Origin: Escherichia phage EC.P1
Reading direction: 5' to 3' (one strand)
Sequence record: PQ657772.1
DNA length: 64,000 bases
Shown here: positions 25,339-26,307 of the stretch, in pieces
How positions within the stretch are numbered: the first letter of the stretch is position 1
Layout: every line of letters begins with the position of its first letter
Program-made: the position numbers and the translations under genes
The notes under the pieces: generated by a model
Database searches by the model: none
Told to the model about the DNA's origin: nothing
The model's input: the letters and a program-made list of their open reading frames with translations, nothing else

Positions 25339-26307
25339 TTAAAAATCTTCGAACTCATAACCTTTTGTCTTAACCATCTTACGCAGTCGTTCCATTGCTT
25401 CAGAGTACTTACGGTGCAATGAAGAACGAGCAGTCATGACCTTACCCTTCTCATCTTCAAAACCACTCTCAATGATTTCTCGTAGCGTTTCTGGTTCAGA
25501 ATAAGAACCAATACCATGTACACGTTCAATCAATTCACGGTCTTTGGCAGATAGGTTACTCATCATTTCTGCAATACTTTGTACCAGTGGGGTACTGACA
25601 GTTTCTACGCCTAAGTTGTAATCAGGTTCAACTGAAGTAACAATGTCAGATAATGTACTTTCTGAATCATTACTCATTTTCATATTCAATGCTACATAAG
25701 TGTTATTGTAAGTTAGACAATTCTTAACGTGTTGAATCTCAATACCAGTCTCTTTTGACACCATCTCAGGAGTTGGGTATTTACCATGTTTCCTTTGATA
25801 CTCTTCTACACAACGTTTCACATAAATGTTATTAACACTCATATAACGTGGGAAATGCACTAGATAATTAGCATCTGCACTTTCGTTATAGATTGTCATG
25901 TACACAGTTGTTGTTGCATATGTAATGAACTTGACATTTTTGGTAGTGTCGAACGTATGAATTGCTCGCATTAAACCTTCAACACCATAAGAAATCTTAT
26001 CTTCAAATGGGATGAAACATGTACACTTACGTGCAACACTTACTACCATTGGATAGTTGTAGCGAACCAAAAGGTCAATGTTCTTTTCAACGTCAATACC
26101 ATCACGCACTGCTTGGATTAACATTTCATTCGTTAGACCTTTAGGTCGGGTTAAGCTGATACCAGTTTTTGGCTTCTCAAACTTGTGACCGTCATGTTCT
26201 TCTTCTTCTTCGACGGAATCAAGAGCCTCTAATACGTTGACTTCTTCACTAGCAAAACACTCATCCAGTACTTCTTCAGAAATTGCATTTAAATCAAGCT
26301 TTTTCAC
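25339..26307 (-). CDS. sigma-70 family RNA polymerase sigma factor
   Basis: 322 aa; AGGAGAAG RBS, GTG start; region 2-like FITYATTTVYMTIY, region 3-like HFPRYMS..KYPTPEMVS, region 4 HTH LSAKDRELIERVHGI...ARSSLHRKYSEAMERLRK. Confidence 0.75.
   Translation of the reverse strand: MKKLDLNAISEEVLDECFASEEVNVLEALDSVEEEEEHDGHKFEKPKTGISLTRPKGLTNEMLIQAVRDGIDVEKNIDLLVRYNYPMVVSVARKCTCFIPFEDKISYGVEGLMRAIHTFDTTKNVKFITYATTTVYMTIYNESADANYLVHFPRYMSVNNIYVKRCVEEYQRKHGKYPTPEMVSKETGIEIQHVKNCLTYNNTYVALNMKMSNDSESTLSDIVTSVEPDYNLGVETVSTPLVQSIAEMMSNLSAKDRELIERVHGIGSYSEPETLREIIESGFEDEKGKVMTARSSLHRKYSEAMERLRKMVKTKGYEFEDF

Follow-up and report, generated by a model that had tools for sequence, protein, structure and literature searches.

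The sigma factor gene and its immediate surroundings

We have analysed a 64,000-nucleotide stretch of DNA from Escherichia phage EC.P1 (sequence record PQ657772.1), hereafter the window, which carries at positions 25339 to 26307 a gene for an RNA polymerase sigma factor. The gene is the last of a tightly packed four-gene unit that runs from 27514 to 25339 on the minus strand with gaps of 5, 1 and 22 nt, and the three genes upstream of it are probably co-transcribed with it. A host-type promoter, of the class that we call E, stands ahead of the unit and a terminator closes it; behind the terminator lie a promoter of a second class, M, and a structured RNA. The ribosome-binding site and dedicated terminator that an initial annotation of this sequence had assigned to the gene are both present, the terminator being absent from the list of a simple terminator scanner and established instead by folding.

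25339..26307, minus strand: coding sequence of the sigma-70-family sigma factor, 322 aa, GTG start
26314..26318, minus strand: Shine-Dalgarno sequence AGGAG, 6 nt 5' of the sigma GTG, read directly from the sequence
25306..25331, minus strand: intrinsic terminator of the sigma operon, a hairpin GGGUUGAC-UUCG-GUCAGCC followed by U7; folding energy -14 kcal/mol, z = -3.0
25276..25304, minus strand: M-class promoter TGGGACA-N13-TGATACAAT, directly after the sigma terminator and starting 35 nt beyond the sigma stop codon
24780..25268 (inferred ends), minus strand: structured non-coding RNA of about 480-490 nt behind this M promoter
25083-25232, minus strand: 5' domain of the RNA (covariance model R1, 160.9 bits)
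27554..27582, minus strand: host-type (E-class) promoter TTGACT-17-TACAAT, ahead of the four-gene operon

Escherichia phage Ecwhy_1 shares 99.2% identity with the window DNA, WPEC3, fEgEco12, vB_Ec-M-J and BF17 share 97-99%, and phages of the 121Q/PBECO4 type ~85%; all of these are jumbo myoviruses of 350-385 kb in the Asteriusvirus/RaK2 group. The sigma gene as an object is already known. It is labelled 'RNA polymerase sigma factor' in most of the near-identical records, of which there are dozens, for instance as gp519 of fEgEco12, a phage reported to encode a sigma factor (PMC13070987). We found no experimental or biochemical work on its clade in the literature searched. The report on fEgEco12 describes gp519 as 'completely absent' from Ecwhy_1 (PMC13070987). 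By tblastn we find it there at positions 1665-2630 with 99.4% identity, annotated 'similar to RNA polymerase sigma factor', and the reported absence is probably an annotation or comparison artefact near the start of the record.

The product is a phage member of the sigma-70 family

Sequence and fold both place the 322-aa protein in the sigma-70 family. Pfam Sigma70_r2 (PF04542) matches residues 80-142 with 37.2 bits against a cut-off of 24, Sigma70_r3 (PF04539) matches residues 163-225 with 44.4 bits against a cut-off of 25.3, and the sole PHROG match is PHROG 351, 'RNA polymerase sigma factor' (1.7e-47). Sequence matches in the PDB are to SigB, SigA, RpoS and RpoD (1e-17 to 1e-13). An AlphaFold model built with 25 clade members as input has a mean pLDDT (predicted local distance difference test score) of 73.6, with ~80-92 in the sigma2 and sigma4 domains. 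When this model is compared with the PDB by Foldseek, the top 50 matches are sigma chains only (RpoS, SigA, RpoD), the best being RpoS 5ipl_F (E 7.9e-11), with alignments that span 240-300 columns. The gene is a phage-encoded sigma-70-family sigma factor, as the initial annotation had proposed, and from its sequence the product is predicted to bind core RNA polymerase and to initiate transcription at specific promoters. That annotation had also described regions 2, 3 and 4.2 as recognisable, and had named Pfam profiles for regions 2 and 4 as the check. Regions 2 and 3 are indeed detected, and the motif quoted for region 2, FITYATTTVYMTIY, is region 2.3/2.4. Region 4 is not: Sigma70_r4 (PF04545) has zero matches on the protein even at E<=10.

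The layout comprises an N-terminus (residues 1-55) that is acidic and predicted by the model to be disordered, sigma2 at ~60-148, sigma3 at ~154-225 and a probable, diverged sigma4 at ~241-315. Bacterial group 1 and 2 sigmas (E. coli RpoD and RpoS, mycobacterial SigA and SigB) are the closest matches in both sequence and fold, and share with it regions 1.2 (partial), 2, 3 and, probably, 4 in the same order; unlike them, the phage protein lacks the region 1.1 domain and the non-conserved region. It falls outside the RpoD and RpoS equivalogs of groups 1 and 2, both in NCBIfam scores and in the conserved promoter-reading residues. The top NCBIfam matches are RpoD_Cterm (96 bits against a cut-off of 354) and RpoS (rpoS_proteo, 81.8 against 378.7), and all are well under the equivalog cut-offs. 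Nor is it a group 4 (extracytoplasmic function) sigma, because region 3 is present, at 44 bits in a protein of 322 aa. Homology to the gp55-type late sigmas is not found by PHROG (phrog_234 / phrog_12791) or by phmmer with gp55 (E 1.4).

A word-indexed homologue search returned only close relatives and generic RpoD proteins, and an exhaustive HMMER search was needed to delimit the family. The latter defines a distinct sigma clade with ~19 representatives at 50% identity, which score 98-426 bits where ordinary sigmas score at most 88. Two features are present in 25 of 25 clade sequences, namely an insertion in region 4.2 of the form G[FY]xDxxGK and the loss of the tryptophan dyad W433/W434 (sigma70 numbering). 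Amino acid identity to the window sigma (tblastn, 98-100% of the length) is 99% in Ecwhy_1, BF17 and fEgEco12, 59% in 121Q/PBECO4, 40% in RaK2 and 36-37% in CBB and Munch. The RpoD-like sigmas of the RaK2 group (121Q gp167, CBB_513, those of GAP32 and RaK2, Munch gp487 and fEgEco12 gp519) share clade, length and early-region position with the window sigma and do not differ from it in kind; the window and 121Q alleles are unusually distant. Indeed, the gene is a local peak of divergence from 121Q (L018; window 23449-27248): its neighbours are 75%, 75% and 79% identical at the amino acid level and genes further out 88-98%. Such a peak suggests either replacement of the allele or accelerated evolution of the sigma.

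The failure of Pfam to detect region 4, together with NCBIfam scores that all lie far under their cut-offs, could be taken as the mark of a decaying or non-functional acquisition from a bacterial rpoD or rpoS. We consider this extremely improbable. More than 70 phage records, ranging from phages of E. coli to those of Xanthomonas, contain the open reading frame (ORF) unbroken and at its full length, the clade is distinct and retains its own conserved features across the ~19 clusters, and the model is confident in sigma2 and sigma4.

Region 2 is conserved in part and region 4 is strongly diverged

Alignments with cellular RpoD-like proteins and E. coli sigma70 set the register: within regions 2.3-3.0, the sigma70 number is obtained by adding 300 to that of the phage residue. 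The motif FITYATTTVYMTIY thus occupies residues 127-140 and aligns with sigma70 F427-T440. Conserved sigma70 positions are N383, D403, G408, G411, F419, K426, F427, T429, Y430, D445 and P453, and the FxTYA of region 2 is retained. In sigma70, N383, F419, K426, T429 and Y430 belong to the pockets for A-11 and T-7. Most of the pocket residues, these five among them, are preserved in the phage protein, which fits the unchanged TATAAT of the M-class promoters described below. The TG of extended -10 elements is read in sigma70 by H455 and E458, and position -12 by Q437 and T440. These four are replaced in the phage sigma by Y155, V158, M137 and Y140, respectively, and the W433/W434 dyad by T/T; in the 25 clade members this dyad is TT, SS, AA or similar.

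Region 4 has diverged much further. PF04545 is found in 0 of 11 phage-clade clusters and in every cellular match of the word-indexed search, and the BLASTP alignment with E. coli sigma70 ends at residue 266/565. Full-length alignments do span the region (TIGR02394, RpoS, over residues 80-320; Mycobacterium tuberculosis SigB over 63-309), and the AlphaFold model places sigma4 helices at 241-250, 254-264, 275-280 and 294-315 with pLDDT 79-90. The clade-specific insertion, of ~9 residues, lies between the first helix of the region 4.2 helix-turn-helix (275-280) and the recognition helix (294-315), and is modelled as a small hairpin (281-292). In the recognition helix R584 of sigma70 is preserved as R294, and E585, R586, R588 and Q589 are replaced by S, S, H and R, respectively. 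On the strength of these alignments and the model we regard this part of the protein as a sigma4-like domain, diverged and with an insertion in its helix-turn-helix; region-4 profiles and BLASTP fail on it because of that insertion and the changed residues of the recognition helix.

Three promoter classes

Promoters were counted over a whole genome in the assembled relative TH47, an Asteriusvirus of 352,450 bp in which the window maps to 118-188.6 kb, and a second genome, the RaK2-like OU509535 (sigma 39-43% identical), was used for comparison. The host-type promoters that the initial annotation had reported are abundant. The E class, TTGACN-N16-18-TANAAT, has 32 sites in the window, all on the minus (coding) strand, and 70 in TH47, where Markov controls yield 10.6 +/- 2.7; of the TH47 sites, 68 have the coding orientation. 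The M class has the consensus TGRGACA(a), N12, RTG(A/C)TATAAT(g), with 16 nt from GRGACA to TATAAT; 22-32 sites, exclusively on the coding strand, were counted in TH47, and the Markov controls gave 1-2. The third class, L, is ATAAATA with no -35 element, which occurs 58 times in TH47, 29 of these lying 12-80 nt upstream of gene starts, many of the genes being large.

The M class is discrete and not a tail of the E class. In an unbiased tabulation of NNGACR-N15-17-TAYAAT, NN is TT at 35 sites, GG at 13 and GA at 9, where GG and GA together make up 8.5% of the background, and AT and AA are nearly absent though they account for 27% of it. The extended -10 TG is found at 18 of the 22 GG or GA sites as against 6 of the 35 TT sites. 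It is this bimodal distribution of NN, and the association of TG mostly with GG and GA, that separates the two classes. A search for enriched k-mers in the 454 upstream regions without E, M or L motifs revealed no fourth class, recovering only variants of the ribosome-binding site, nTAAATA and GGGACAA.

The initial annotation had argued that a phage sigma implies a second promoter class beside the host type, and both M and L are such classes. Its further statement that the class was not yet identified stands in one respect, as no such class had been assigned to this sigma, and fails in another. In CBB and GAP32 a second promoter type, termed 'divergent RpoD-like' (TGAAACG + TATA), has been described upstream of DNA-synthesis genes, along with a third type, ATAAATA, upstream of structural genes; a gp55-like sigma is also encoded there (PMC5259590). 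The CBB orthologue of the window sigma, CBB_513, is situated in a region that is presumed to be early and has many RpoD-like promoters (PMC5259590). The 'Group 2' jumbo phages are noted elsewhere to possess both RpoD-like and minimal sigmas (PMC7824862).

The M-class and late-type promoters of the window, besides the M promoter next to the sigma gene, are:

40009..40038, minus strand: M-class promoter AAGGACA-N14-TGATATAAT (motif match)
41740..41766, minus strand: weaker, M-class-like promoter GAACAG-N12-TGATATAAT, ~11 nt before tRNA-Ser(tga) at 41640-41729
46504..46532, minus strand: M-class promoter TGGGACA-N13-TGATATAAT (motif match)
14079..14105 and 47488..47514, minus strand: further weaker M-class versions (motif match)
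31043..31050, plus strand: T4-late-type motif AATAAATA, 31 nt upstream of the virion structural gene 31082-32239

The genes behind M promoters include those for the large subunit of DNA topoisomerase II, a Dda-like helicase, an exonuclease, a primase and three HNH endonucleases, and a gp32-like single-stranded DNA-binding protein (SSB) whose gene has two M promoters in tandem. The M-like promoter adjoining tRNA-Ser(tga) means that at least some phage tRNAs may also be of the middle class. A further M promoter, at TH47 268206, stands directly before a gene for a gp55-like 'sigma factor for late transcription' (TH47 267312-268151, minus strand; phrog_12791, 3.9e-152; phrog_234, 1e-16), which a simple ORF caller had missed. 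The late-sigma gene is thus behind an M promoter and the RpoD-like sigma gene behind an E promoter. By analogy, the M-class gene set is a T4-like 'middle' regulon. As a side observation, 3 of the 10 M-promoter-proximal genes tested encode HNH endonucleases.

The two plus-strand genes that had been put forward as targets of the sigma are poor candidates. The gene at 31082-32239 encodes a virion structural protein (phrog_10468, 2.4e-157) and is placed in the late class because it is preceded by AATAAATA, and the RCC1-like gene at 366-1490 has only a one-mismatch version of the late motif. By homology the L class would belong to the gp55-like late sigma encoded elsewhere in the genome, and hence is not the class expected to be read by the window sigma. 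The best candidates for its targets are the M-class promoters on its own strand, the nearest being the one at 25276-25304.

The -35 box of the M class changes with the recognition helix

The -35 box of the M class differs between phage clades, while the host-type E box (and the region 4 of the hosts' sigma70) is constant. TH47 has 22 boxes of the GRGACR type, 1 of the TGAACR type and 48 of the host type TTGAC[AT]; the RaK2-like genome has 1, 25 (with 4 more on the other strand) and 41, respectively. The M promoters of the RaK2-like genome take the form (T)TGAACAAA-N-(TG)nTATAAT and lie on the same orthologous genes: topoisomerase II, exonuclease, primase, SSB (two promoters) and the gp55-like sigma all have the box of their own clade. 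The tandem M promoters of the SSB gene illustrate this across four lineages, being GGGACG and GAGACA in TH47, TGGGACA twice in Munch, TGAACAA twice in the RaK2-like genome and TGAAACG twice in CBB. Set beside the recognition helices of the respective sigmas, the boxes pair as follows:

Window: helix TARSSLHRKY, box TGGGAC
121Q: helix KSRSSIHRKY, box TGGGAC
Munch: helix SSRTSLHRCY, box TGGGAC
RaK2-like: helix TVRGTLHYKF, box TGAACA
CBB and XbC2: helix TSKATLSRRY, box TGAAAC

The Munch sigma is the informative case, since at 36% overall identity it is more diverged from the window sigma than the RaK2-type protein is and yet has helix and box in common with it. A box that is specific to the clade, in phages whose host-type box is constant, points to a reader that is encoded by the phage and co-evolves with the box. 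With three promoter classes and three sigmas, the parsimonious assignment would be host sigma70 to E, the window sigma to M and the gp55-like sigma to L. We dropped proposals for individual base-to-residue contacts, such as R299 reading the G at -35/-34, as over-interpretation, because CBB also has R299 and its box is different.

The same comparison bears on whether the protein acts on the host instead, either by sequestering core polymerase as a means of host shut-off or by redirecting it to host promoters. An acidic, disordered N-terminus that resembles region 1.1, an early expression context and the locally accelerated divergence (59% identity to 121Q against 75-98% for the neighbours), which could reflect an arms race, would all suit such a role. 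The recognition helices, however, are conserved within clades and vary between them in step with the phage box, which argues for promoter recognition on phage DNA, and we judge a host-directed role improbable.

A proposed middle-gene sigma and the case for sigma appropriation

On balance we lean, by a narrow measure, towards the interpretation that the window sigma reads the M class and so directs host RNA polymerase to middle promoters. Host sigma70 holoenzyme would transcribe the sigma gene early from TTGACT-17-TACAAT, as the last gene of the four-gene operon; the protein would then bind host core RNA polymerase and direct it to the 'middle' class TGRGACA(a)-N12-R-TG-A-TATAAT. This class would drive the replication genes (topoisomerase II, Dda helicase, primase, exonuclease and SSB) and also tRNA-Ser, several homing-endonuclease genes, the four copies of the structured RNA and the gp55-like late sigma, which would in turn read the ATAAATA late promoters. 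The window sigma would thereby fill the slot occupied by MotA/AsiA in T4 and by gp28 in SPO1.

There are precedents for early phage sigmas that switch the host core to a later class, among them SPO1 gp28 (middle), phiEco32 gp36 and the phage 7-11 sigma (PMC13401047, PMC8948821). Those proteins are small and distantly related, whereas the window sigma is full-length and RpoD-like, and its proposed promoters, unlike theirs, keep the sigma70-type -10 and change only the -35 box.

Several observations weigh against assigning the M class to this sigma. In its -10 element the class matches the sigma70 type perfectly, with a strong TG of the extended kind, and the phage protein is without sigma70's TG- and -12-reading residues and without W433/W434. 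Core-binding residues of region 2.2 are only partly conserved, with E407 replaced by Y and N409 by V. The covariation of helix and box is limited to three box types in four to five lineages, and a correlation with lineage would be expected for any phage DNA-binding protein that co-evolves with its site.

A different division of labour would follow if a sigma70-type -10 and TG have been kept for a reader that the phage sigma is not: host sigma70 could read the -10 and TG while a phage activator, analogous to MotA/AsiA, binds the clade box. The phage sigma would then have another job, for example standing in for sigma70 in general when the latter has been inhibited or outcompeted. In T4, middle promoters are read in this way: AsiA remodels the host sigma70, MotA occupies the box, and an extended -10 is frequent (PMC1524935). 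The architecture is the same as in the M class, with a box for the -35, a good -10 and conserved positions -13 to -16 (PMC1524935), and the T4 promoters so built drive replication genes and gene 55 (PMC1524935, PMC6024815). The likeness to T4 extends to the gp55-like late sigma and ATAAATA late motifs of the window phage group, and not to the window sigma itself, which is unrelated to gp55. Homologues of AsiA, MotA and gp33 were sought with T4 queries, validated against the PDB, by phmmer --max in the six-frame TH47 proteome, and none was significant; this absence is weak evidence because the pairwise search is insensitive, having missed even the gp55-like gene (best E 0.31), a point which itself counts against our assignment. 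Against appropriation, the M box has precisely the spacing of a -35 element (16 nt to TATAAT), unlike the T4 MotA box, which is centred at -30, and it still contains GACA, as sigma4 would read it. Box type goes with the 4.2 recognition helix in Munch too, although the rest of the Munch sigma has diverged as far as the CBB protein has. Appropriation would moreover leave a conserved, full-length phage sigma with no promoter class of its own, given that a fourth motif was not found. We therefore regard sigma appropriation as unlikely, though as the most serious of the alternatives.

Extending the assignment of the M class to the window sigma, we propose for the RaK2 group as a whole that an RpoD-derived middle sigma replaced T4-style appropriation by MotA/AsiA. 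Its remodelled 4.2 helix would read the TGGGAC, TGAACA or TGAAAC box, with the sigma70-type -10 kept. Host sigma70, the RpoD-like sigma and the gp55-like sigma would form a three-sigma cascade, and the middle regulon would include the ~480-nt multi-copy RNAs, with one copy in genetic linkage to the sigma gene. This broader proposal is tentative, and we would place it a little short of even.

A structured RNA beside the sigma gene

The ~490 nt behind the M promoter at 25304-25276 contain no plausible ORF and encode instead the RNA listed above. This stretch is ~99% identical to 121Q over ~520 nt, in a setting where the flanking genes are 59-79% identical at the protein level, which suggests either strong constraint on the RNA or its recent exchange. 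By blastn 61 phage records contain the RNA, each genome having it at 2-5 places. Over 350-450 nt its identity is still ~70% in CBB, GAP32, EJP2, Serratia BF and Erwinia, Yersinia, Salmonella and Xanthomonas phages, whose sigmas are only 31-37% identical. Six other genera were examined: in all of them the RNA falls in DNA without an annotated coding sequence (CDS), and in five this DNA is a gap of 590-680 nt between two CDSs.

The evidence for structure comes from an alignment of 12 RNA sequences. Of the 75 pairs that RNAalifold predicts, 38 show compensatory double changes. An explicit count over 96 pairs in 17 helices finds 93.3% of cells paired against 40-44% when the partners are slid, 41 pairs with double changes against 9-15, and a covariation score of 0.365 against 0.06-0.10; 0 of 500 shuffles reach the observed value on any pairing or covariation measure.

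The covariance model of the 5' domain finds 1 copy in the window, 4 in TH47 and 3 in the RaK2-like genome:

TH47: 49394-49866, 146014-146507, 262049-262412 and 345608-346018
OU509535: 85176, 162541 and 347050

For the window copy, three of the TH47 copies and each of the three RaK2-like copies, an M promoter of the type proper to the clade lies ~45-70 nt upstream of the start of the RNA. The fourth TH47 copy (146k) is separated from the post-sigma M promoter by the gene of a free-standing HNH endonuclease (146553-147197, corresponding to window ~24822-25275; phrog_953, 3.5e-74), and the middle part of this copy has been replaced. One of the RaK2-like copies directly follows the sigma gene, with an M promoter that carries the box of its own clade, and sigma gene, M promoter and structured RNA are thus adjacent in both Asteriusvirus and RaK2-like genomes.

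Searches of Rfam 15 at gathering and E-value thresholds gave no matching family, only chance-level matches to the terminator hairpin, and we found no description of the RNA in the literature searched; the PA5oct paper reports four unexplained non-coding RNAs, one of them of 451 nt. Large, multi-copy and conserved across the RaK2-group jumbo phages, this RNA is the most novel item that we found. As candidate roles, by analogy, we have considered an origin or primer RNA like the R-loops of T4 middle promoters or ColE1 RNA II, a large phage RNA comparable to ROOL or GOLLD, and a protein sponge. GC skew around the four TH47 copies, examined for the idea of a replication origin, follows the transcription strand and is uninformative.

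Neighbouring genes and repeated elements

The surroundings of the sigma gene are those of an early-type region, the window containing ~145 small minus-strand ORFs. Two further features adjoin the gene:

26330..27514, minus strand: the three genes upstream of the sigma gene, for proteins of 86 aa, 139 aa and 165 aa (HslV-family peptidase-like), assigned from the ORF list, homology and synteny with 121Q
26420..26448, minus strand: weaker promoter candidate TTGATG-17-TATAAT (motif match)

The HslV-family peptidase-like gene (26330-26827; phrog_24804, with a weak match to phrog_1040) is directly 5' of the sigma gene, an arrangement that is conserved in 121Q and fEgEco12.

A terminator/promoter cassette, GGTTGACTTCGGTCAGCC-T5-TGCTATAAT, is repeated in the window, and many of the host-type promoters are built into it: the terminator hairpin GGTTGACTTCGGTCAGCC itself provides the TTGACT -35 of the next early promoter, and TGCTATAAT comes after the T-run. 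Eight copies of the hairpin are on the minus strand of the window, starting at 25330, 17206, 13612, 12831, 10752, 10070, 5447 and 4864. The sigma terminator is one of these, but is followed by an M promoter instead. The cassette resembles the 'promoter-early stem-loop' cassettes of T4-type hyperplastic regions.

The palindrome CAGTACTG is over-represented, with 42 copies in the window against 1.1 expected (for example at 7598, 22924, 25246, 39233, 40593 and 41014), 203 in TH47 against 5.5 and 246 in the RaK2-like genome; for AGTACT the window count is 169, where 20.6 would be expected. CAGTACTG is found mostly inside ORFs, and six copies in the window lie just 5' of the -10 of a host-type promoter (GTACTG(N)TAYAAT). 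The palindrome may be a protein-binding, modification or packaging-related site.

Implications

The sigma gene itself is ordinary, RpoD-like sigmas of the group having been discussed before (PMC5259590, PMC7824862), and the finding that concerns it is modest. What the analysis adds is a candidate promoter-class consensus with a defined regulon of replication genes, the late sigma, a tRNA and structured RNAs, together with a natural specificity-swap series in which three box types are paired with three recognition helices. This series makes the specificity of the sigma directly testable, and it and the adjacent RNA are the parts most worth following up. The RNA has a value of its own that is independent of the sigma, being supported by covariation, present in several copies per genome and not in Rfam. 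Judged from the promoter statistics, the genes of the M class and the covariation across clades, the protein is likely a sigma dedicated to middle genes, whose helix for reading the -35 has been remodelled. If so, a T4-related lineage would have solved the early-to-middle switch with a sigma and not with sigma appropriation, and sigma/promoter pairs from the clade would be usable as orthogonal sets with the core polymerase of E. coli.

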